The notes beneath the pieces are model-generated. The model was not told the origin of the DNA and ran no database searches. It worked only from the letters and a program-made list of their open reading frames with translations. The position numbers and the translations under genes are program-made. Shown here piece by piece: positions 1 to 16,912 of a stretch of DNA of 64,000 bases (its first letter is position 1; each line of letters begins with the position of its first letter). The DNA comes from an uncultured Rivularia sp. (GTDB lineage Bacteria > Cyanobacteriota > Cyanobacteriia > Cyanobacteriales > Nostocaceae). The stretch spans positions 6,752,001 through 6,816,000 of the forward strand of contig OY762007.1 in the NCBI GenBank assembly GCA_963665115.1. Reading direction: 5' to 3'.

Positions 1-1100
1 ACTGCTTCAATCACGTCCATTTCCAGCAGCGTGCGTCGAATTTGCCCTTCTACACCACCGCGAAATAATGCACCTTGGGGTAAGACAACAGCCATTCGTC
101 CATGTGGCTTCGCCATTGACTTGACCATGTGTTGTACCCAAGCAAAATCACCACTACTATCTGTAGGCAGACCAGCAAAAGCACGCCCCCAGGGGTCAGT
201 TTCCCAAACTTCCCGTCCCCATTTTTGTAAAGAGAATGGAGGATTCGCAATTACTACATCAAACTCAGCTAAACCACCCGTGTTGGGATTAGTAAAAACA
301 GGAATACGCAAGGTATCGCCGCGTTCAATTGCAAAATCTTCAACTTCGTGTAGGAATAAATTCATCCGGGCAGTGGAAGCAGTGGTTAAATTCTTCTCTT
401 GCCCGTATAACTTGCCAAAGAATGTCCGTGCGTCTCCCCCTTTATTACGTACATGGTCAACAGCAGCCAGTAACATTCCTCCAGTACCGCAAGCTGGATC
501 GTAAACCGTTTCCCCCTCTTTAGGTTCTAATATATCCACCATTAGCTGTACCACGCTACGTGGTGTATAAAATTCCCCAGCTTTCTTTTTGGTTGTATCG
601 GCGAATTTTTTAATTAGGTATTCATAAGCATCGCCCATGACATCGTTATGGACGCGCTTATTGCTGAGGTTAAGCGCAGAAAAATGTTCAATAAGGTCTT
701 TGAGTAGTTCGTCAGATAGCTTTTCTTTGTTCGTCCACTGAGCATCACCGAATACACCGTATAAATGCTTTTGATTGGCTACTTCAACATTACGTAGGGA
801 ATTTTGTAAAGCAGTACCCACATTACTGGATGCTTCTCGCACATCTTGCCAGTGACTATCTTCAGGAATTTGAAAGCGATGTTCGTCAGGAAAATCTTCT
901 CCGTACTCTTCAATCATTTTCTGACGCTCTTCATCCCAAACATCACAAATCCGCTTGAAGAATAATAACGGCAGAATGTAACTTTTCCAATCAGTACGGT
1001 CAACAGGACTACCGCGTAATATGTTTGCTGCCTCCCATAAATGAGATTCCAGTTCTTGCAGCGTAATAGGGGCATCATCAAACAGCGATCGCTGAATCAT
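1..1100 (-). CDS. hsdM: Type I restriction-modification methyltransferase subunit M (partial, runs off left edge)
   Basis: Not in ORF track because it is edge-truncated. Manual translation from ATG at 1100 gives MIQRSLFDDAPITLQELESHLWEAANILRG, then GEFYTPRSVV, DPACGTGGML and NPPF, which are HsdM motifs. Confidence 0.92.
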   Translation of the reverse strand, partial: MIQRSLFDDAPITLQELESHLWEAANILRGSPVDRTDWKSYILPLLFFKRICDVWDEERQKMIEEYGEDFPDEHRFQIPEDSHWQDVREASSNVGTALQNSLRNVEVANQKHLYGVFGDAQWTNKEKLSDELLKDLIEHFSALNLSNKRVHNDVMGDAYEYLIKKFADTTKKKAGEFYTPRSVVQLMVDILEPKEGETVYDPACGTGGMLLAAVDHVRNKGGDARTFFGKLYGQEKNLTTASTARMNLFLHEVEDFAIERGDTLRIPVFTNPNTGGLAEFDVVIANPPFSLQKWGREVWETDPWGRAFAGLPTDSSGDFAWVQHMVKSMAKPHGRMAVVLPQGALFRGGVEGQIRRTLLEMDVIEA

Positions 1101-1242
1101 CAGTTTCCGTACACAAATAAAAGAGCAGCTTTATATAGCGTGGACAATTATAGGACAAAAACCCGCTTTTGTGCTTAATTACGGCAAGGTTTAAGCATAT
1201 CTAATCATCTAGCGACTGTTATGTAATATGATGCTTCTATTT

Positions 1243-1258
1243 ATTGCCAAATGGCAAT
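1243..1258. promoter_or_regulatory. Palindrome ATTGCCA-AA-TGGCAAT, candidate operator
   Basis: Perfect inverted repeat; its first 15 bp recur at 1601-1615. Confidence 0.55.
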
Positions 1259-1268
1259 TGACCTGGCT

Positions 1269-1601
1269 ATGGGTATTGCTCCAAAAATTCCTACTCAGAG
1301 ACACTGGGATGCGTTTAACGCATACCTAAAACCCCTAAACGATTTGATGGAACTCGAAGAGTTTCTTCGGCACTGGGAAGTGTCACGAGAAGAATTAGCT
1401 TTTATTTGCGACTGTTCCTTAACAACAGTCAATCATTGGTTTTCTCAAGGCATTGACAGGAGAGTACCAAGCCAAAAACACAAGCAGCGCCTAGCTTTGG
1501 TACACCATATTTGGACTGCAATTGATACAGAACCGGAGTATTTACAAAAGCTACGGGAAATGTATCGCCAAAAACCGCGCAAAAATCGTAACAATCCTTA
1601 A
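1269..1601 (+). CDS. Small helix-turn-helix (XRE-like) protein
   Basis: SREELAFICDCSLTTVNHWFS is an HTH pattern. Start is either ATG 1251 (inside the palindrome) or ATG 1269. Confidence 0.75.
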   Translation: MGIAPKIPTQRHWDAFNAYLKPLNDLMELEEFLRHWEVSREELAFICDCSLTTVNHWFSQGIDRRVPSQKHKQRLALVHHIWTAIDTEPEYLQKLREMYRQKPRKNRNNP

Positions 1602-1641
1602 TTGCCAAATGGCAAGTTTTTATTGCCATCGTGGCAATAAA
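1601..1641. promoter_or_regulatory. Two tandem TTGCCA..TGGCAA palindromes upstream of the GmrSD-like gene
   Basis: ATTGCCAAATGGCAA at 1601-1615 and TTTATTGCCA-TCG-TGGCAATAAA at 1619-1641. Confidence 0.55.
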
Positions 1642-1800
1642 CAATTTATGGTCATTAATTGAGTAAGAATTTCTAGAAAAAGAACTTGTAACGAATTCTT
1701 TGGTTTTTCAATCATAGCCAAGGGCTTTATTTGCCTATCGTACAGATTATTTTCAGGCAGATATCTTAACACCCGCACTTGTGGTAATAACGGCAAACAA

Positions 1801-3567
1801 ATGGATTCCATCTCAACCTTTGACATTACTAAATACCCCTTATTCGATGTCATGAAAGACATCAAATTTGGACGCATTCAATTACCAGATTTTCAACGAG
1901 ATTGGGTATGGGACGATATTCATGTGCGGCGTTTGTTGGCAAGTATATCGCTGGCTTATCCCATTGGTGCAGTCATGATGCTGCAACAAGGCATCCAAAG
2001 TCAACAATTTAAACCTCGCTTGCTTGATGGTGTGGCAAATTCTGCTTCTCAATTGCCAAACTTACTTGTACTCGACGGACAGCAAAGACTGACAACTTTA
2101 TTCATGGTGCTATTGTCCTCCCAACCCGTTACTATTAAAGACCTTAAAAGTCATAAGTTAATCAAAAAATGGTACTACCTAGATATTGAAAAAAGCCTCG
2201 AACCAAATTGCGATCGCAAATCAGCAATAATCGCATTACCCGAATTAAAAATTATGCGAACTCGAAATAGCGATTTGATTGACTGTTCCACACCAGAAAA
2301 CGAATATGAAAACCTTTTATTCCCCTTATCAAAAGTATTCTCTTATTCCGAATGGCGCAGTAAATTTTCTAAATATTGGCAGTATCAACCACAAAAGCTC
2401 GAACTGCTTGACACTTTAGAATTAGAAGTCCTTAAAAAGTTTGAGCATTATCAAATACCAGTAATTAAACTGCGAGATTCTTTACCCAAAGAAGCAGTAT
2501 GTCAGGTTTTTGAAGACACTAACACTGCTGGGTGCGACTTGAATTTCTTCGATTTAATGAGTTCGAGTTATTGCGTAGGCGACTTCAGCCTTCGAGATGA
2601 TTGGAAAAGCCGCGAAAGCCGCTTCCAATCCTTCAAGGTGTTACGAAAAGTTCGTAACACTGATTTTGTCCAAGCAGTTACGTTGGTAGCTGGTTATACT
2701 CGCAGAATTGAAGCAATCAAGCAAGGCTGGAACTTAGATAAATTACCTGGTGTATCCTGCGGTCGTTCTGAAGTATTAAAGCTGACCAAAGAAGAATACA
2801 TATTATGGGCAGATCCGGTTCATCGGGGTTTTGAAGAAGCCGCTCGTTTTCTACACAGTCAAAAAATCTTTGATGCTAAGGATATCGCTTATCCCATTCA
2901 GTTAGTTGCTTTGAGTGCAATTTTAACAATTCTTGGAGAAGGTTCCCGTTCTTATCAAGTACGCAGTAAGCTTGAACGCTGGCTATGGTGTGGAATGTTT
3001 GGCGAAATTTATACCCGGTGGCACGATGCACAAGCTGGAAGAGATGTAGTTGAAGTTCCAGGATGGGTTTCGGGTGGTGCGGTACCTTTTTGCATTACCC
3101 AAGCAGATTTCTCTTTACAAAGATTGATTAGCGTTAGAAAACGACTTGGTGCAGTATATCAAGGTTTTTCAGCATTACTACGTCGAGAAGGTGCAGTTGA
3201 TTGGATTACAGGCGAAGAAATCAACGATGTTGTTTATTTTGACGAACAAATTGACTCGCATCATATCTTCCCTATCGCTTGGTGTCGCAAACAAGGCATT
3301 GACCCCAAAATTTATAACTGCCTTGTTAATCGTACTCCCCTAAGCGCTAAGACTAACAAAAAAATCGGTAGCAAGGCTCCTTCGCTCTATTTGAAAGAAT
3401 TTGAAAAACAAGGAATAGCAGCAGGAAGACTGGAAGAAATATTGCGATCGCACTGTATCGAATTTAATGTTTTACAATGCGATAATTTTGAAGCATTTTC
3501 CCAAGCTAGAGCAGAAGCCCTTATGAAGCTTATAGGTAAGGCTATGGGTAAAAACTTGACTTTTTAG
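1801..3567 (+). CDS. DUF262 + HNH (DUF1524-like) protein, GmrSD-type type IV restriction endonuclease
   Basis: N-terminal LPDFQRDWVW and LDGQQRLT; C-terminal DSHHIFP...NRTPLSAKTN HNH-like motif. Confidence 0.82.
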   Translation: MDSISTFDITKYPLFDVMKDIKFGRIQLPDFQRDWVWDDIHVRRLLASISLAYPIGAVMMLQQGIQSQQFKPRLLDGVANSASQLPNLLVLDGQQRLTTLFMVLLSSQPVTIKDLKSHKLIKKWYYLDIEKSLEPNCDRKSAIIALPELKIMRTRNSDLIDCSTPENEYENLLFPLSKVFSYSEWRSKFSKYWQYQPQKLELLDTLELEVLKKFEHYQIPVIKLRDSLPKEAVCQVFEDTNTAGCDLNFFDLMSSSYCVGDFSLRDDWKSRESRFQSFKVLRKVRNTDFVQAVTLVAGYTRRIEAIKQGWNLDKLPGVSCGRSEVLKLTKEEYILWADPVHRGFEEAARFLHSQKIFDAKDIAYPIQLVALSAILTILGEGSRSYQVRSKLERWLWCGMFGEIYTRWHDAQAGRDVVEVPGWVSGGAVPFCITQADFSLQRLISVRKRLGAVYQGFSALLRREGAVDWITGEEINDVVYFDEQIDSHHIFPIAWCRKQGIDPKIYNCLVNRTPLSAKTNKKIGSKAPSLYLKEFEKQGIAAGRLEEILRSHCIEFNVLQCDNFEAFSQARAEALMKLIGKAMGKNLTF

Positions 3568-3915
3568 TCTAAGTTAAGACACTGAGATTGTTCTCATCAA
3601 TAAATAAAATAAATTTATCTTTTAGTTTACAGCCATGTCTCTAAGCCAAAAGAATAAGCTAAATAGCTTACGTAAACGTCACTTTATCAAAAATACCCTT
3701 CTTAACTGAATAAGTTGTTACGCATTTAGTTTGTATAAGACTAGCGAGCAAGATGCTCGCACTACAATATTTTCAGGTTTTAGCATTACGCAATTTAGCT
3801 GCATATCAGCTTACAACACGGATAAGAGGGGCAGTAGAAAGAGATACTTATTAGTTGAGTCTGTGATTCTAAAAATTCCCAGCCATTTTCTACTGTCACA
3901 ATATTAGTACACGGC

Positions 3916-4094
3916 TTGAGCAACGCCTAACGGCATAAAGCCAAGACTCACGGTAAATCCACATTCGAGCTTGTAGCTAATCAGGTGAGCAACGCCTAAC
4001 GGCATAAAGCCAAGACTCACTCATGATTTTTGAATCCCAATTTTAAATTCAATATCTGGTGAGCAACGCCTAACGGCATAAAGCCAAGACTCAC
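3916..4094 (-). CRISPR. Minimal CRISPR array: three 36-bp repeats and two spacers (33 and 38 bp)
   Basis: Repeats at 3916-3951 (one terminal mismatch, trailer), 3985-4020 and 4059-4094. Minus-strand repeat is GTGAGTCTTGGCTTTATGCCGTTAGGCGTTGCTCAC. Confidence 0.95.
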
Positions 4095-4340
4095 AGCAAA
4101 GGCTGAAACCCTTGAGTGATGAAGGCTCACTCACAATTTTACAAGTACCCCTCAACCGGAGATCCCAAAAAGACAAAACTTATTAATTTTTTGTATTTCT
4201 TCAACCTCTAAAACTCAATCCCCTTAACTCTTTTAAGGATTTGCAAGTACCTTTTCCAGTTATAAATCGCTATATCCCTTAACGTGTAAACTTTCCCGCC
4301 ATTCTTTTACTTCAATCCTCTTCCCCAGCAAAGGTGCTTG
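4095..4340 (-). promoter_or_regulatory. CRISPR leader
   Basis: Non-coding segment between cas5 and the first repeat, with a repeated TTT(A/G)CAAGTACC motif near 4138 and 4240 and GCTGAAACCC next to the repeat. Confidence 0.6.
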
Positions 4341-4980
4341 TCAAATCGGAGATTGAATCATTGTCCACGCCAAATCAGGAGGTGACAATCTATCCATTTC
4401 CTCAATTCGATACCTTAAAAATCGGGTATTTCTTGACCCCACATGATCAACCCAATAGGGTAAGGTTAACCAACCTCGATTATCCATAATTACCCAATGT
4501 CTCACCTCCCCTAGATAATCTTCGGAGACAAGTTTGATTGATTTAATCAACTGATCACTTTCTCCCAAAAACAAACAACCGAACCGTCTTACTAGCTCAG
4601 GATGCTCAAAAGCCAACTGTATCCGCTCCCTCAAACTTGGTTGTATCTTCTCTCCTTCGGAAACGAACCCAAATCAAACACTGCAAATTAGATAAAATTT
4701 CTTGATAACCGGGAATCACATTCTCCGGGTGGCTAAAATCAGCATTCTTAAACCGCCTCATTTGACGCAAAATTCGCGACTTTTTGGGACTTGATAACAT
4801 TGCGATCGCCAATTCCACCCCACAGTGGCGATAGACATCCGTTTCTCCTACCAAAGACAACAACATCCCATATACTGTTGCTGGAGGAGGAACAGAATAG
4901 GTTTTTCCCATTTCTCTTGCATGGGACTCCCGAAAAGTCGCAAATGGAACATCCAAATAAAGAATTGATGGTGCAACCAT
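4341..4980 (-). pseudogene. cas5: Cas5 (DevS/Myxan type I-B) with a +1 frameshift near 4661-4663 (real or sequencing error)
   Basis: LYLDVPFATFR..TYSVPPPATVYGMLLSLVG. Removing one T in CGTTTCC joins the two ORFs as WVRSEGEKIQPSLRERI. Confidence 0.85.
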
Positions 4981-4985
4981 TTTGA

Positions 4986-5945
4986 TTATTCTAAGCCCAA
5001 ATCTCTTTTTATGACCGTTTTCAAAGCTTCAATCAGTTCATTTCTATTACGATTAATATTCACCTCATTAAAAGGGGAATTATCAAAATTATCTAATTGC
5101 TGTAACTCCTTAACAATTGTTCCCCCAATCCACAATTGCTTAGGGTCAATTTGTCCGCATTCCACTTCATCTATAAACTCTTTTGTCAGTTTTGCTTCCT
5201 TACTTTTAGGATCGCAATATTCAAAGCAATAAGAAACATATGAAGCAAAATTATTTGTCCATTGAAATACTAAACTATCGGGAAAGAAAGGATAATTAAA
5301 AGCATTACTACTACCTCCTACTTTGGGCAGATTCATAATCCCATCTATCAGAGGTAAAATCCGCGAAAAGTCTTTGAGATGAGTAGCATTAATTCCAAAA
5401 TAGTATTGATATCTAGTTGCATGATATTCGGTGAAATGAAGTGATGTACTATCCTTTTCTCTGCCACTTTTTGCCCCTAACTTGACTGCACCGTCATAGG
5501 GAGTGAGCGAAACAGCCATATTCATCCCTAAAGCACCCAATCGTTGATTAGGAGTGCTGACTTTTGTTTTTTTCTTTTTCCTCTTGGTTGTTGAAGTCTC
5601 CTCCTCTGTTTCCGCAGACTCTAGTAAAGCAAACCCAAAAATATCATCATCATAAAACTGTTCTGGATCGAAATCTTCACTTGTTAACCGATTAATATGT
5701 TCATCTTCGTCCCAAACTCTATTAACTAAATAACCTTGCTTTTGCAGATAAAAACGTAACGCCCAACGAATTGCACTTGAACCTACAAAAGAATGAATCC
5801 TACCATTCCAATAGCCTTTTTGTAGAATAGTCTTATTGCCTCGTCTAATGTCATGATTTAAGGAAGCTAACCCATAACCAGTGAGGACTGTTCCGTAAAG
5901 GTAATAATTGGGTATATTGTTATCATTCTTCTTCTGACTCATCAT
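4986..5945 (-). CDS. cas7: Cas7 (DevR/Cst2 type), intact
   Basis: LYGTVLT, VGSSAIRWALR, FYDDDIFGF, SLHFTEYHATRYQY; position within the operon. Confidence 0.88.
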   Translation of the reverse strand: MMSQKKNDNNIPNYYLYGTVLTGYGLASLNHDIRRGNKTILQKGYWNGRIHSFVGSSAIRWALRFYLQKQGYLVNRVWDEDEHINRLTSEDFDPEQFYDDDIFGFALLESAETEEETSTTKRKKKKTKVSTPNQRLGALGMNMAVSLTPYDGAVKLGAKSGREKDSTSLHFTEYHATRYQYYFGINATHLKDFSRILPLIDGIMNLPKVGGSSNAFNYPFFPDSLVFQWTNNFASYVSYCFEYCDPKSKEAKLTKEFIDEVECGQIDPKQLWIGGTIVKELQQLDNFDNSPFNEVNINRNRNELIEALKTVIKRDLGLE

Positions 5946-7500
5946 TCATTTCTTCTAGTTGTTGATTGTTTGTTAATGAATTATCATCACTATTGGTAGG
6001 TTTATCCTTGGGCTTATAACTGGCGATCGCTAACAATGCCCAAATTCTTAATTCTTGCCAAGATGATTTTTTAATTAATAGTGCAATCTCTTGCTGATGC
6101 TGAATAAAATATTTATTTAATCCCCCTCTTACTAAAAAGTCAGACAAATATTCCTTAAACGATAATTCATCATAACAATAGTTTAGCTCTGCCCTTAATC
6201 GCTCAACTTTCTTCTTAATTGGAGGATTTTTCCCTTCCTCAGTTTTGGCATAAATTTTAGCAAAGTTGCCCTTCATGGCTTGCTGAAATACCTTAATAAA
6301 AATCAGATACTGCTTGTCTTCTTCACTATTATCTGCCATTATTACGAGTCCTTCTCTATTGAAAAATAACTGGTTAAATAAATATTCTTCTGAATCCTCT
6401 ATCACCAATTTTTCCCAAAAATTAGACCACCAATGGTTTCCTTTCACTAAATTATCAGCAATCAAGGAGCGAATCGGATTTACTTTAACAAAAATTTTCT
6501 TAAATTTAATTTTCTGATAATTGGTTTTAAAGTACTTTTGAACCTGTTGATAAGTAGTTAAAGTATTCTTGTCAAATTTAATTTCTTCTATTCCCATCAA
6601 TGTTCTTTGACGAGAAGCTTGATTAATTTTTTCATATAACCAAACTTGACAAGCTTGATAGTAGCCGCCCTCAGTGTGAATATCGTCTAAACTGTAATAA
6701 ATTAATCCTGCTTCACCAAGTTTACTAACATGAAACTGTTTAGTTTCTAATTGCTGTAATCGCCATCTTCTTTGAGAAGCATCTTCAAAATCTTTGATTT
6801 CTGGAATTACTACCAGGTAGCGATGGGGTTTCTTTTCCTTCAAATCCTCTGATGGAATATGAAATAAGCAATAATGACAAATAACTGGTACAAATAATAA
6901 TGCGAAAGCGTATTCAGGTTTTTCTTCCAGTTTTGCAATATTCCGCGTCTTAGCGTGACGAACAATTCCCCCTAAATACAACCAACTGGTTATTCTCACA
7001 TAATCGCGTCTCAGTTGTTGGGTATCTGTATCGCATAACTTCTCTGCAAAGGTCTGATGTGCATACCAAGTTAGGGGTTTGTATTAATACTCGAATTTTT
7101 GTTCTTCAACCGTTAATTCAGTATCAACTAGTTCTCCCGCTTTATAAAACCGATTATGACGTAGAAAAACAGCACACATTCCCTCATGAATATGAATTTT
7201 ATGGCTTAAATCTATTGCATCATTTTCTAGCCCTGCCAAACAAATTAAACCTGTATCATCTAGTTTAAAAGACTCGTTAATTAACCAAGATAGGGCAACT
7301 AAATCACTTCCTTCCCAGGATAATTCAATAGTGTCAGCAGTCAAATCCCATGATATATATCCTCCCCTTTGACGAGATGAGGGATATTGCTGTTCTAACC
7401 GCTTTAAAGTCATGTAAAGTCCCGTCATTCCAGCGCGGTGAATGATTGTCGTATCCGCAGCATCGAGAGATAGGGAAATTTTGGGTTGGGTAGCAATCAT
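5923..7500 (-). pseudogene. cas8: Cas8 large subunit (Myxan type I-B) with an in-frame premature TAA at 7084-7086
   Basis: ORFs 7084..7500 and 5923..6999 are in the same frame. Read-through gives EY*YKPLTWYAHQTFAEKL and about 525 codons; HRAGMTGLYMTL at the N-terminus. Confidence 0.85.
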
Positions 7501-7922
7501 GTAATGGTTTCCTTTTCTTCCTTATTGCGAGTCGCTGGGACAAATATTCCACACATCATCTTTCGTTTCCCCCCAATACCTTGTTCTTGCAAGGTTAAGG
7601 AATCTTCAGGGTTGAGTTCGTTCACTTTTACGCCAAATCCTCTAATTTTAAACTGTTTCCCTTCTTTACTGATGGTTAATTGTCTTCTTTGAGGTGTTCC
7701 ATCTTGTCGGGTAAGAAGTTCGATTTTTCCTTGTATTTCTAAATTATCCAGTTGCCGTTGCACGGCTTCAATAAAATTACTAGGGTCTTGAAACCCTTTG
7801 ATTACTACTAACCTGGAATAAACGCTTTCTGAGGAAATTAAAGGTTTGTAGTCGGGAATATCTAGTTGATAAGAATTTTTACCTATGTGAAAAGCTTGAC
7901 CTGCTAAATAGGGATATAATAA
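7497..7922 (-). pseudogene. cas6: Cas6 C-terminal part (interrupted by IS)
   Basis: Gly-rich loop QEQGIGGKRKMMCGIF; joins the N-terminal part once the IS and one TSD copy are removed. Confidence 0.9.
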
Positions 7923-7977
7923 GTATCCGCTCAAAAAAATGGGGTAAAGGTACACCTTGCGTCGTAGAATATGAAGC

Positions 7978-9666
7978 ATGACGCAAAAACGATCATCTAA
8001 AAAATTAGTCACAGCATTATTGCAATCAATCGACCCAAAACAGATTGCAGACGAGGACGTGCGTCAAACGGTAGAAGTATTACTCAACTTAATAGAACAG
8101 CTAAATGTAAAAATCAAAGAATTAGAAGAAGAAAATCAAAAACTACGTGATGAAAACAACCGCTTAAAAGGTGAACAAGGTAAACCAGACATCAAAGCGA
8201 ATAAAAACAAAGGGTTTAAGAAAAACTATTCATCAGAAAAAGAACGAAAAATAGCAAAAGAACACAGTAAAGCAAGTAAAAACGAGTCTATCAAGATAAA
8301 CCGAGAAGAGATTGTAGTTTACCCACAAGAACAATTACCAGCAGACGCACAGTTCAAGGGTTATGAGGAAGTAGTAGTCCAAGACATTTTACTTAAGCCA
8401 GATAACATACTGTTCCGCAAGCAAAAATACTACTCACCAGAAACAGGAAAAACTTATTTAGCGGAACTACCAACAGGTTACGAAGGTGAATTTGGTCCAG
8501 GAGTAAAAGCTTTGGTCATGAGTCTATATTATGGTGGAAACATGACCCAAGGGAAGTTATTAGAATTTTTAGAAGATATTGGTATCTCGATTAGTGCAGG
8601 AACAATATCAAATTTATTAATTAAAAACCAAGAATATTTTGAAGCTGAATACGAAGAAGTATACAAGGAAGGGTTAGCCAGCAGTCCTTGGCAACACTTT
8701 GACCAAACAGGTGCGCGTGTTGCAGGAGTGAACCATACAACAAATGTGATTTGTAACCCCTTGTACACAATTTACCAAACAACGCGATACAAAGACCGTT
8801 TGACTGTATTAAAAGTATTTCAAAACACAACCGAACTCTCCTTTGTTCTCAACGAGATGACCTATGAACTTTTGGAGACTTTTAAAGTTCCAATTAAGTG
8901 GGTTAATAAACTAAAATTACTATCTCAACAGAAGGCTTTTACCGAAACTGAGTTTAATTTTTTGATTGGTGAGTACTTAAGTAGACTTGGTTCTCAACAC
9001 CGTTCTCGCATATATGAATCGGCAGCAATTGCTTTTTATCATCAGCAATCAACTGTACCAGTAATTACAACTCTAGTATGCGATGATGCTCCGCAGTTCA
9101 AGTTAATAACATCGGATTTGGCTCTTTGTTGGGTGCATGAAGGACGACATTATAAGAAATTAAGTCCGCTTATACCTTGCCATCAAAAACTTTTAGATAA
9201 TTTTCTAGAAAGATTCTGGGAATATTACAGAAAATTATTATCTTATCGAGATTCTCCAAGTTGGGATAAAGCTCACGAACTAGAAATGGAATTTTGGACA
9301 CTTTTTACAGAAAAAAGTGGTTATCAACAGTTAGATGAGCGAAAACGATTAACTACTTTGAAAGTAAACGAGTTGCTTCTCGTGTTGGAGCATCCAGAAT
9401 TACTATTGCATAACAACCCTGCCGAATTAGCTGCTAGGACTATGGTACAACGACGTAACATCAGTTACGCAACCCAGACAAAACAAGGCACAAAAGCGTG
9501 GGATGTTTTTATGTCCCTTGTTGACACTACTCGTAAGTTGGGTATCAGTTTTTATGAGTATATGCGTGACCGCATTTCTCAAGTTGAAAATATTCCATCT
9601 TTGGGGACAATTATTCGGAAGAAATCTTCTTCTAATTCCTATGGTTGGTCATGGATGCCTCAATAA
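7978..9666 (+). CDS. IS66-family DDE transposase
   Basis: Coiled-coil N-terminus; HFDQTG, LVCDDAPQF, LCWVHEGR and HNNPAELAAR motifs. Confidence 0.88.
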   Translation: MTQKRSSKKLVTALLQSIDPKQIADEDVRQTVEVLLNLIEQLNVKIKELEEENQKLRDENNRLKGEQGKPDIKANKNKGFKKNYSSEKERKIAKEHSKASKNESIKINREEIVVYPQEQLPADAQFKGYEEVVVQDILLKPDNILFRKQKYYSPETGKTYLAELPTGYEGEFGPGVKALVMSLYYGGNMTQGKLLEFLEDIGISISAGTISNLLIKNQEYFEAEYEEVYKEGLASSPWQHFDQTGARVAGVNHTTNVICNPLYTIYQTTRYKDRLTVLKVFQNTTELSFVLNEMTYELLETFKVPIKWVNKLKLLSQQKAFTETEFNFLIGEYLSRLGSQHRSRIYESAAIAFYHQQSTVPVITTLVCDDAPQFKLITSDLALCWVHEGRHYKKLSPLIPCHQKLLDNFLERFWEYYRKLLSYRDSPSWDKAHELEMEFWTLFTEKSGYQQLDERKRLTTLKVNELLLVLEHPELLLHNNPAELAARTMVQRRNISYATQTKQGTKAWDVFMSLVDTTRKLGISFYEYMRDRISQVENIPSLGTIIRKKSSSNSYGWSWMPQ

Positions 9667-9894
9667 CACCCCTGTATATTAAGACTGTGCTAAACCCTCA
9701 TATCCTTGGTTGTAGAATACTGTAAAGTGCATGGATTAACCACATCTATTTCTTCATAGTTTTTATAAGCGATTGAAACTTTTTTAGTTACTTTGATAGC
9801 ATATTTACAATTTACCTTATTTGCAACTTCCGCTATTAATCAATTTCTTGATTTTGATTATTTTTATTTATTTGTTGCTCTCACGAGAGATCCA

Positions 9895-10037
9895 GCAACT
9901 GGGGAAGATTTGGCGGCGACAGCGGAGTGCCAGGTGGGGGCACGATTATTTTCTGTGCCTATGTAAAATCTATCTGCCCCTACCTGGTACCGTCAAATCA
10001 GCGTAGCGGTTCCCCAGTTGCGCCGCTGCTTTTTTTT
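9895..10037 (+). ncRNA. Candidate structured RNA in the IS 3' non-coding region
   Basis: Three nested stems whose only mismatches are G-U on the + strand, followed by a T tract. Confidence 0.4.
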
Positions 10038-10088
10038 ATCGTAGTTGACATTCAAGACAGCCGATACCCCGAAATTTTGAGGGGATAC

Positions 10089-10372
10089 TATAATAAAGGG
10101 ATTTGTTGGTGATGAATCCGGATTTTTAAACGAGATTGAGCCGCGATCTCAAGCAAATTGTTCCTAGTTGGTATTCCAGCAATCGGATGGATTCCAATAG
10201 ACTTCAGTTCGTGAAGACCAGGACAAATCCTTGACAAAGCACTATAGATAACATAGCCATTATCAAGAGGAATAGGTGCGCCTCTTAGCTTAAAAGTTAA
10301 GTCTACATATTCCTCACTTGGAATTAATAGGGCTGCCATAGATGAAAATTTATCTCCGACACCAGCCAGCAT
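10089..10372 (-). pseudogene. cas6: Cas6 N-terminal part
   Basis: YVDLTFKLRG..IPLDNGYVIYSALS..IGIHPI; start at ATG 10372 or 10339. Confidence 0.88.
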
Positions 10373-10414
10373 AAACCGCTTCTGCTCTTTCCTGCTTTCT
10401 ATATTCGATTGAAC

Positions 10415-10572
10415 TCGCGGCAGGCTTATCATTCCATTTTGAACTAGCGGCAAAATTATGGTTCCAAGATGCCAATTTCATCAAAAATTGGCTGACGTAA
10501 GAATGAGGGTTATGGTGTTGTTGGCGGCAAAGTTATGGTTCCAGTAGCGGCAAAGTTATGGGTAAAGTCACA
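10415..10572 (-). repeat. Tn7-like transposon end with TnsB-binding repeats
   Basis: Minus strand reads TGTGACTTTACCCATAACTTTGCCGCTA. GCGGCAAA(G/A)TTATGG copies lie near 10547, 10524 and 10447, with a degenerate copy near 10417. Candidate TSD CCTGG at 10573-10577. Confidence 0.85.
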
Positions 10573-10987
10573 CCTGGCGACTATAAGTCGCGGCTATACA
10601 AGCAAAACCCACCGTGGCAGGGGTTGATATTCTTTATCGCTTTTCTGGTTACAAGTCAAAGCCTTATAATACACTTCTGGAACGCAGAGCCTTGCATTTA
10701 TACTGGAAGCAGAGCCTCCGGCTATGGATTTTCAGCCAGAAGCTGGGAACCAGTAACCAATCCAAAATCCAAAATCCAAAATTGAAATGACTGTACAATT
10801 GCTCAGACGGAAATTTACAGCGGTTTCAAATTTGGTATCAAAAATTTCATCACCGAAATAATAATTTCGCATTATTCCCATAAACTAAAAAGACGTAGCA
10901 TTGCTACGTCTCTACAAAATTAATTCTTATTCTTAACCCCTGCCACGGTGGGTTTTGCCTGTATAGCCGCGATTTCAATCGCCAGGT
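10572..10987. repeat. Inverted pair of ~55-bp REP-like repeats (10572-10626 and 10933-10987)
   Basis: ACCTGGCGA..TCGCGGCTATACA(A/G)GCAAAACCCACCGTGGCAGGGGTT present in opposite orientations. Confidence 0.75.
10891..10911. repeat. Dispersed palindrome AGACGTAGCA-N-TGCTACGTCT (also ~16960, ~35489, ~36309)
   Basis: Four near-identical intergenic copies, mostly near gene 3' ends. Confidence 0.8.
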
Positions 10988-13686: not shown

Positions 13687-15118
13687 ATGAGCGATTCTAT
13701 GGCTGATGGTTATCCTCAAAAGGTTGATAAAGATAAAAAACTCAACTTAAAAACCAAGTTGGCTTACGGTGCTGGGGATTTGGGACCGGCTATTACTGCA
13801 AATATTTCCGTATTCTTTCTGTTAGTTTTCTTTACTAATGTCGCGGGTATTCCGGCGGGTTTAGCTGGCAGTATTTTGATGGTGGGCAAAATTTGGGATG
13901 CTGTCAATGACCCGCTTGTAGGAGTTTTGACAGATCGAACCGAATCTAAACGTTGGGGTCGCCGTCTTCCTTGGTTACTGTATGGTGCGATACCTTTTGG
14001 TATTTTCTTCTTTTTGCAGTGGATTGTACCAAGTACCAATGTTTGGGTATTGTTTTGGTATTACGTCATTATTGGAGTGATATCTCAAGTATTTTATACG
14101 GTAGTCAATTTGCCTTATACAGCAATGACTCCAGAATTAACTCAAGATTACGACGAACGAACCAGCCTTAATAGTATTCGCTTCGCTTTTTCTATTGGCG
14201 GTAGTATTCTTTCATTATTGTTAGCACGATTAATATTTGCTTTAATTGATAATCGTCAACAGCAATATCTAGCTTTAGCAGCAGTTTGTGCTGTAATTTC
14301 GGTTTTAGGACTATTTTGGTGCGTTTGGGGAACTCGCGAAAGGGTTTTAGCTTTTGAAGCGAAACGTACTCAAAGCGAGGAAAGCGAATCTATTCCTTTC
14401 GGGGAACAAATCAAAATCGTCTTCAATAACAAACCTTTTTTATTCGTAATTGGTATATACCTTTTCTCCTGGTTGGGGGTACAAATAACCGCTAGCGTTA
14501 TTCCTTATTTTGTGATCTATTGCATGAGGCTAAAGGAATCAGATGTACCGACAGTAATGATTGGGGTACAGGGAACCGCTTTATTAATGTTGTTTGTTTG
14601 GGGTGCATTAAGTAAACGAGTGGGGAAAAAAGCCGTTTACTTTATGGGAATGTTTTTATGGATCATCGCAGCGACGGGATTATTTTTCTTACAACCCGGT
14701 CAAATTGGTTTAATGTACGTTTTAGCAGTACTAGCAGGTTGTGGGGTATCTGTTGCTTATCTTGTACCTTGGTCTATGATGCCAGATGTAATTGAATTAG
14801 ATGAATTACAAACCGGACAACGCCGTGAAGGAGTATTCTATGGCTTTATGGTGTTACTACAAAAATTTGGTTTAGCTTTCGGTTTATTTCTAGTCGGAAT
14901 CGCTTTACAAACTTCGGGTTTTCAAGAAAATATTCCCGGACAAACTGAACTACCAATACAGCCAGATGCAGCACTATCAGCCATCCGCATCGCTGTAGGG
15001 TCCAATTCCCATTGGATGTTTAATTGGCGGATTATTTTTAACCTATTTTTATCCCATCACCCGCGAAATGCACGCCGAAATGTTACTTAAACTCGAAGAA
15101 AAACGGAAAAACAGTTAA
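13687..15118 (+). CDS. MFS transporter, GPH/MelB-like family (apparent +1 frameshift at ~15000)
   Basis: WDAVNDPLVG, GRRLPW and GQRREG motifs. Removing one G at GGGTCC restores AVGPIP..FYPITRE..* ending at 15118. Confidence 0.88.
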
Positions 15119-16345: not shown

Positions 16346-16912
16346 ATGAATATTGAAGAGTTTTTTGAATTAAGTGCTGGTAAATGGTTTTCTCATCGTA
16401 CTAGCCATCATTTGGCTTTTAAACAATCAGAAGGCGGTAAATCAGATATTATTATTGAAACTTTAGCAGATGACCATCCAGAAGTAATTAAATTGTGCGA
16501 GCAACATCAAGTTGAACCTAGCAGTGGAAATAGTGGTGCTAGAGTAACCTGGAACGGCACAATGGAATGGGATAAAGAAAAACACGAAGGTTCTACAGTT
16601 TTAGTTGCAATCCCAAATGCAGAAAACCCTAGGATCGGAAAGTTACTGCGAGAAATGGGCTACGCAGAAAAAACTCCAGTTGCCGGAACTTACAAAATGG
16701 GCAGCGATGATGCGCTTACCTTAACTACAGAATACGAAACCATGTGGTCTGAAGAACGTTTGTGGTTCGCAAGTCCAAATTTACGGATGCGTGTTGGTAT
16801 TCTCAAGCGCTTCGGTGGTTTCAGCATGGCTTCTTTCACCTCTGAGATTCGCATGGGTGGAAATCCATCTGCTGCGAAAACAGATGATGCAGCAGCTAAC
16901 ACTGCATCGTAA
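16346..16912 (+). CDS. cpcS: Phycobiliprotein lyase CpcS/CpeS family
   Basis: [16 protein letters not shown] and [13 protein letters not shown] motifs. Confidence 0.88.

Follow-up and report, generated by a model that had tools for sequence, protein, structure and literature searches.

The 64,000-nt stretch analyzed here (the window; positions 6,752,001 to 6,816,000 of the forward strand of contig OY762007.1, assembly GCA_963665115.1, from an uncultured Rivularia sp.) contains one end of a Tn7-like element that carries the genes of a CRISPR-associated complex for antiviral defence (Cascade), that is, a CRISPR-associated transposon (CAST). The genome holding the window (8.69 Mb) is designated G000, and a genome position on G000:C1 equals the window position plus 6,752,000. 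The element is 29,768 bp long (G000:C1:6732805-6762572). Its in-window part (1..10572, unstranded) includes the cas-side end, and the tRNA-side end, tnsD, tnsC, tnsAB, tniQ and most of the cargo are located to the left of the window.

Genes, ends and subtype of the element

The minus strand from 4341 to 10372 encodes cas6-cas8-cas7-cas5, the order given in the initial annotation, and profile matches assigned all four genes to type I-MYXAN/I-B families. The cas6 gene is present as a 5' part (10089..10372, Pfam Cas6 positions 1-71) and a 3' part (7497..7922, positions 72-190), and its start is 200 bp from the transposon end. The cas8 gene (5923..7500, Cas8a1/Cmx1 family) has 525 codons with an in-frame stop at codon 139 (7084-7086). 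An internal start within cas8, downstream of this stop, opens cas11 (5923..6339, 138 aa), whose product is collinear with Cas11 of PDB 8FCJ over residues 1-138 (E 2.2e-79). The cas7 gene (4986..5945, 319 aa) is open, and its product matches Cas7 of 8FCJ with E 1.5e-203 and ~91% identity (counted, as for TnsC below, from printed alignments). The cas5 gene (4341..4980; 212 aa in relatives) has an apparent frameshift at 4661. All of these genes, including cas11, are on the minus strand. The CRISPR array that follows (3916..4094) consists, as annotated, of three 36-nt repeats at 3916-3951 (1 mismatch), 3985-4020 and 4059-4094, with spacers at 3952-3984 (33 nt) and 4021-4058 (38 nt). It is probably read from the minus strand, as judged from the cas gene orientation and the degenerate distal repeat. 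Only these three matches to the repeat were found at up to 6 mismatches in the genome. In agreement with the annotated absence of Cas3, Cas1 and Cas2, genome-wide searches for cas1 and cas3 gave no match inside the element; cas2 was absent from the profile hits of the scanned open reading frames (ORFs) of the element, which did not include a cas2 family search.

The terminal 25 nt of the element occur exactly twice in the genome, as identical inverted copies at G000:C1:6732805 and 6762572, each adjoining CCTGG. The cas-side end (10447..10572, minus strand) contains the terminal TGT (10572-10570) and three TnsB-type sites at 10547, 10524 and 10447, each with 0-1 mismatch in 15. The initial annotation counted four such repeats upstream of cas6; the putative fourth, at 10417, is 75% alike and no better than chance, since a same-family chance match at 5242 is equally good. 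The 5-bp target-site duplication CCTGG is located at 10573..10577 (plus strand) and G000:C1:6732800-6732804. A tRNA-Ala(GGC) gene (G000:C1:6732701-6732773) ends 31 nt before the tRNA-side end. Both ends, the duplication and the tRNA site were observed directly, and the far end preceded by CCTGG, the tns genes and the attachment gene (often a tRNA) are where the initial annotation had placed them, to the left of the window. Contigs from four sequencing runs (X1, X22, X23 and X24) were aligned to the window. Those of X22, X23 and X24 read through the junction on the cas side without differences, while a related element in X1 aligns up to exactly 10572 and then diverges. The three matching runs, whose library type is not on record, are possibly the window's own sample, and their agreement is a technical check rather than an independent strain.

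The transposition genes tnsAB, tnsC and tnsD are open and run on the minus strand. Fused tnsAB (G000:C1:6735559-6738255, 898 aa) encodes the Tn7 TnsA N and C domains, rve and Mu-C, and the product matches chain M of PDB 9BW1 over its full length (1845.6 bits over 7-904). TnsC (G000:C1:6734405-6735556, 383 aa) matches a solved chain with E 1.7e-224 and ~87% identity, and its score is the same against 9G0F and against TnsC in the 8FCU series. It retains K63, E172 and R224, the residues essential in PmcTnsC, which is the protein of 9G0F (PMC11915506; the other CAST reports used for comparison are PMC9881144, PMC10293859, PMC11406308 and bioRxiv 10.1101/2021.10.18.464778). TnsD (G000:C1:6733048-6734415, 455 aa) is encoded after tnsC, next to the tRNA-side end. 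It can be aligned over its whole length with a solved 462-aa chain (E 4.8e-133), and truncation was therefore rejected. The two are only roughly half identical, which fits a different tRNA target. We take the rest of the 8FCU series, together with 9BW1/8V32, to be PmcCAST as well, partly from the identical TnsC score and partly as an assumption. The short tniQ (G000:C1:6738855-6739846, plus strand) is divergent from tnsAB-tnsC-tnsD, and its 3' piece matches the TniQ chain of the solved I-B2 series (E 1.3e-110). In the assembly, two extra bases in a run of C (G000:C1:6739274) shift its frame. Database records contain the truncated product from a single contig, and the three other members of its cluster have lengths of 329, 335 and 303 aa.

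Taken as a type I-B CAST in the initial annotation, the element can be placed in subtype I-B2.1, an assignment that we regard as virtually certain. TnsA and TnsB are fused in a single protein, and a tnsAB-tnsC-tnsD operon with a separate short tniQ is the arrangement by which I-B2.1 is defined (bioRxiv 10.1101/2021.10.18.464778). The ends enclose cas6, cas8 (with cas11), cas7, cas5 and a short array, cas6 and cas8 being broken, and the element, with its TGT/ACA ends and 5-bp target duplication, is inserted ~30 bp past a tRNA gene. The frames of the RNA-guided pathway are not intact in this copy, which is a mark of activity and not of the family. RoCAST, of subtype I-B2.2, similarly has fused TnsAB, a type I-B Cascade and insertion 31 bp after a tRNA gene, but there tnsD flanks the Cascade genes, tniQ comes after tnsC and the site is tRNA-Leu (bioRxiv 10.1101/2021.10.18.464778), whereas here tnsD follows tnsC at the tRNA-side end. 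AvCAST (I-B1) shares a type I-B Cascade without cas3 and two TniQ-family selectors, but its TnsA and TnsB are separate proteins and its attachment site is glmS, and neither applies here.

The Cascade genes could alternatively play no part in transposition and be cargo of a tRNA-homing Tn7-like element, as the decaying remains of a stand-alone type I-MYXAN defence system, a view that would fit both the generality of the matched I-MYXAN models and the decay of the genes. This is hardly credible: the E value of Cas7 against the I-B2 CAST chain given above compares with 1.2e-13 against the other I-B Cas7 in PDB, Cas11 and the short TniQ match chains of the same I-B2 CAST series, and the short distance between cas6 and the end, a layout shared by two relatives, leaves no room for cas3 or cas1. 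No cas3 with adaptation genes sharing the repeat, as in a canonical type I-B/I-MYXAN defence, was found, nor was the cognate cas3/cas1 locus that the initial annotation had named as counter-evidence. The three cas1 genes are found at contig positions 5.9 kb, 1.71 Mb and 4.76 Mb, next to arrays whose repeats differ, and the genome-wide cas3 search gave none above the family cut-off and 7 weak matches outside the element.

Breaks in cas6 and cas8

Two lesions, neither reported in the initial annotation, were observed directly in the Cascade genes. An IS66-family insertion sequence (IS) of 2,166 bp (7923..10088, plus strand; transposase ORF 7978-9666) interrupts cas6 between Pfam positions 71 and 72 and is flanked by an 8-bp target duplication (7915-7922 and 10089-10096), the two copies of which are included in the cas6 parts. 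The genome has ten copies of this IS66, 100% identical and each with its own 8-bp duplication, while run X1 carries an IS-free join (7914-10089). In cas8, codon 139 is TAA, whereas it is CAA (Gln) in the two same-genus relatives compared, G019 and G015. The stop is spanned by contigs of X22, X23 and X24 with 0 differing letters. As a frame-change control for the noise of the assembly, query proteins matching at 70% or more were taken (40 in all); 13 from the element and 2 duplicates were dropped, and none of the 25 remaining genes had an in-frame stop. The cas5 gene was rejected as a pseudogene because its frameshift is an assembly error, the extra base at 4661 being absent from all four aligned runs.

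Because Cas6 cannot be made whole, CRISPR RNA would stay uncut, and the stop in cas8 means that full-length Cas8 would not be made. Genome-wide, PF09559 Cas6 matches are confined to the two cas6 halves in the window, and no second Cas8 homologue was found. A tblastn search with eight query proteins (E 1e-4), which did not cover distant systems, detected no second Tn7-like or Cascade system that could act in trans. The loss of the RNA-guided arm, which we consider highly probable from these sequences, is also likely recent, as the identical IS66 copies and the mostly silent changes private to G000 in cas7 (5 replacement/11 silent) and cas5 (2 replacement/15 silent) suggest. Two of the ten IS66 copies are in the element (in cas6 and hsdS; P ~4e-4 under uniform insertion), a clustering that could be explained by selection against insertions elsewhere.

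As suggested by PmcCAST, RoCAST and McCAST, TnsD would recognize the tRNA-Ala gene and load TnsC, and TnsC would recruit fused TnsAB, so that the element would be moved to ~31 bp downstream of the tRNA. In an intact copy, Cascade (Cas8, 11, 7, 5 and 6) with the short TniQ would direct it to spacer-matched targets, presumably plasmids; this second route is likely dead here. With two RNA-guidance genes broken, movement, if any, would likely occur only by protein-guided homing. We conclude that the locus is most probably an I-B2.1 CAST at tRNA-Ala(GGC) in which the RNA-guided arm is likely disabled by the IS66 in cas6 and the stop in cas8 and TnsD homing is predicted to be usable. For the homing arm itself, the open tns frames incline us to think that it is still competent.

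Several observations weigh against this conclusion. The assembly is indel-noisy, with 5 of the 25 control genes, ruvB among them, changing frame. The frames of the tns genes, tniQ and hsdR are those of the assembly, and the breaks in tniQ and hsdR may thus be real or errors. The X22, X23 and X24 contigs enter the IS66 by only 28-29 bases, under the bridging rule of at least 31 bases into an inserted element, so that the IS junctions are documented by the duplication and by the lack of an IS-free join in these runs. Private changes in cas8 codons 1-310 (10 replacement/12 silent) give a weaker signal than those in cas7 and cas5. TnsAB differs at 31 positions from all seven 898-aa cluster members compared, and any of these substitutions could impair it. 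A target was found for neither spacer: in the own genome the best ungapped non-self matches were 26/38 and 23/33, among plasmids one spacer had a best listed E of 0.03 in unrelated records and the other no match, among phages the best E was 0.3, and viral contigs gave 0 exact matches to a 26-nt part of each spacer. There was accordingly no protospacer in which to look for the ATG PAM of type I-B2 CASTs. Finally, what is said here on mobility and expression is predicted from the sequence.

The assembly noise, the cas5 error and the separate start of Cas11 downstream of the cas8 stop might suggest that the element is fully functional, the breaks being assembly errors or being bypassed by stop read-through, a split Cas8 or a host Cas6 in trans. 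We consider this very improbable because the cas8 stop is present in contigs of three runs, the IS66 has its duplication and nine identical sister copies, and the genome has no other PF09559 Cas6 or Cas8 homologue. An element that is wholly immobile, with the homing arm also dead or silent and persistence by vertical inheritance alone, would be in line with the private TnsAB substitutions, with the IS66 hits in cargo genes and with the loss of parts of the transposition genes in G019 and G015 at the same tRNA site. This is unlikely, as the frames of tnsAB, tnsC and tnsD are open over their full length, the two ends are undamaged and share the same terminal 25 nt, and TnsC keeps the three essential residues.

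Spacers, cargo and surroundings

I-B2 systems must acquire spacers in trans, according to PMC11406308. Since the cas1 genes of G000 adjoin other repeats, and neither a cas3 above the cut-off nor a further PF09559 Cas6 was found, it was probably in another host that the two spacers were taken up. The lack of target matches leaves self-targeting or tRNA-targeting spacers unsupported, and we do not invoke self-targeting toxicity to explain the decay. The genes that run across the contig origin presumably encode a type I-D-like system, as judged from the ORFs and not from family profiles. The names attached to the TnsAB cluster members make a filamentous cyanobacterium the likely host.

The cargo includes a type I restriction-modification (RM) cluster of two hsdM genes, hsdS split by an IS66 and hsdR in two frames. 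Its first gene, the 5' part of the hsdM methyltransferase gene (1..1100, minus strand), is in the window, and the cluster continues to the left. The IS66 in hsdS (G000:C1:6745855-6748020) is identical to that in cas6, and the type I RM system is likely disabled by it. Further cargo comprises a gene resembling AlbA/RecG, an HTH-M78 gene preceded by a small ORF, and a GmrSD/DUF262-type gene (1801..3567, plus strand, 588 aa; PF03235, E 1e-29). Between the last and the array is a short dispersed repeat (3711-3765) that is present ~40 times in the genome when up to 10 mismatches in 55 are allowed. A pair of 41-nt inverted repeats (10585-10625 and 10935-10975; 95% complementary, 309 nt apart) begins just beyond the transposon end and encloses the start of a gene that is truncated here and has 188 aa in G019; the repeat arm has 3 genomic copies. 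A transporter-like ORF at 13687-15090 ends in an odd tail. Elsewhere in the genome, G000:C1:6730249-6731357 and other ordinary genes are frameshifted, and pseudogene calls need read checks. Eleven tRNA genes are found in 1.3 kb at G000:C1:2710034-2711354 (ARAGORN).

Related elements and the tRNA-Ala site

Cas7 matches at E 1e-20 or better were found in 12 of 61 genomes, G000 included, and two same-genus genomes, G019 and G015, matched at 92-95%. Both carry an element at the same tRNA-Ala site, with cargo, spacers, duplications and damage that differ from those of G000. The target duplications of the three genomes are CCTGG, TTTAC and AATGT, and a single ancestral insertion common to them was rejected on this ground. 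In G019 the cas genes and tniQ are open while tnsAB, tnsC and the 5' half of tnsD are lost, and this element (L016:4074-19554) is likely a non-autonomous version by its gene content. G015 has deletions in tnsAB and cas8 and frameshifts in tnsD. A 528-aa ORF interrupting the tnsD remnant of G019 resembles a group II intron reverse transcriptase, and a 366-aa ORF between tniQ and tnsAB in G015 (L019:10967-12067) resembles an IscB-type protein in its N-terminal motif. In each of the two relatives, the 5-bp duplication is inside a damaged older tRNA-side end (G019, L016:3614-3874 and L017:459-516; G015, L019:3830-4090 and 16811-16867). The current elements were likely inserted into the remains of earlier ones, suggesting repeated occupation of the site; in G000, no remnant of an earlier tRNA-side end was found.

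Among relatives of TnsD with 42-88% identity, a tRNA-Ala gene adjoins 9 of 10 loci (8 GGC, 1 TGC), and the tenth locus ends at the gene; these loci are kin rather than independent, though the link spans the whole identity range. The tRNA-to-end spacing is 30-32 nt at 8 of 10 places (G000, G019, G015, L034-L037 and L039); the end motif was unmatched at the other two (L040 and L041), and the count leaves out L042, L043 and L038, the last of which may be a duplicate record. The reported TnsD spacings are 29 ± 1 nt for McCAST, 31 nt for RoCAST and 30-33 nt for CyCAST in the texts consulted. In the tRNA-Ala(GGC) element at L041:7598-11597, whose TnsD is 47% identical, tnsD is directly beside cas6-cas8 in an I-B2.2-type layout, and the same layout is seen in L025 at tRNA-Thr.

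The element is an ordinary member of a known CAST family, closely related to PmcCAST (Tn7744; type I-B2.1, Peltigera membranacea cyanobiont 210A). Common to both are fused TnsAB, the tnsAB-tnsC-tnsD operon with a separate short tniQ, cas6-8-7-5 with internal cas11, the lack of cas3, cas1 and cas2, a short array and a tRNA site, in addition to the high TnsC and Cas7 identities. They differ in the site (tRNA-Val there, according to the text consulted, and tRNA-Ala(GGC) here), in TnsD, in the broken cas6 and cas8, and in the cargo, which here is the type I RM cluster with GmrSD. Cut-and-paste transposition is demonstrated for McCAST and cointegrates are reported for PmcCAST in the same literature. 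An element of Mojavia pulchra (GCA_019359325_2; L035), listed in Supplementary Table S1 of PMC9881144, has near-identical ends, the same divergent tniQ, TnsAB, TnsC and TnsD at 91%, 89% and 83-84% identity, and a tRNA-Ala(GGC) gene 32 nt from its end. It is ~19 kb by the end positions of the table, compared with 29.8 kb here, and its tniQ is open; the stretch fetched, which covers only part of the element, has no cas gene. Full-text searches for tRNA-Ala gave no paper, and the term is absent from the supplement text of PMC9881144 (Fig. 1C labels tRNAs and was available by its legend). The site is nevertheless probably already recorded, because that table lists the Mojavia element, which the present scan places at tRNA-Ala(GGC).

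One tentative reading, to which we give slightly less than an even chance, is a natural selector swap that put a tRNA-Ala(GGC)-specific TnsD on a near-PmcCAST chassis, combined with a serially recolonized tRNA-Ala slot in which copies would decay, here with the RNA-guided arm first, and be overwritten by newcomers.

With both its ends located, this locus gives the family one more completely mapped I-B2.1 CAST and an example in which RNA guidance is lost while the homing genes stay open, which is of modest import. Scans for such elements call for caution, as this one assembly holds both real breaks (cas6 and cas8) and at least one false break (cas5). A TnsD that is about half identical to PmcTnsD, next to partners near 90%, provides a ready comparison for the determinants of tRNA choice. 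If the selector swap is true, this TnsD would be a drop-in that redirects PmcCAST parts to tRNA-Ala.

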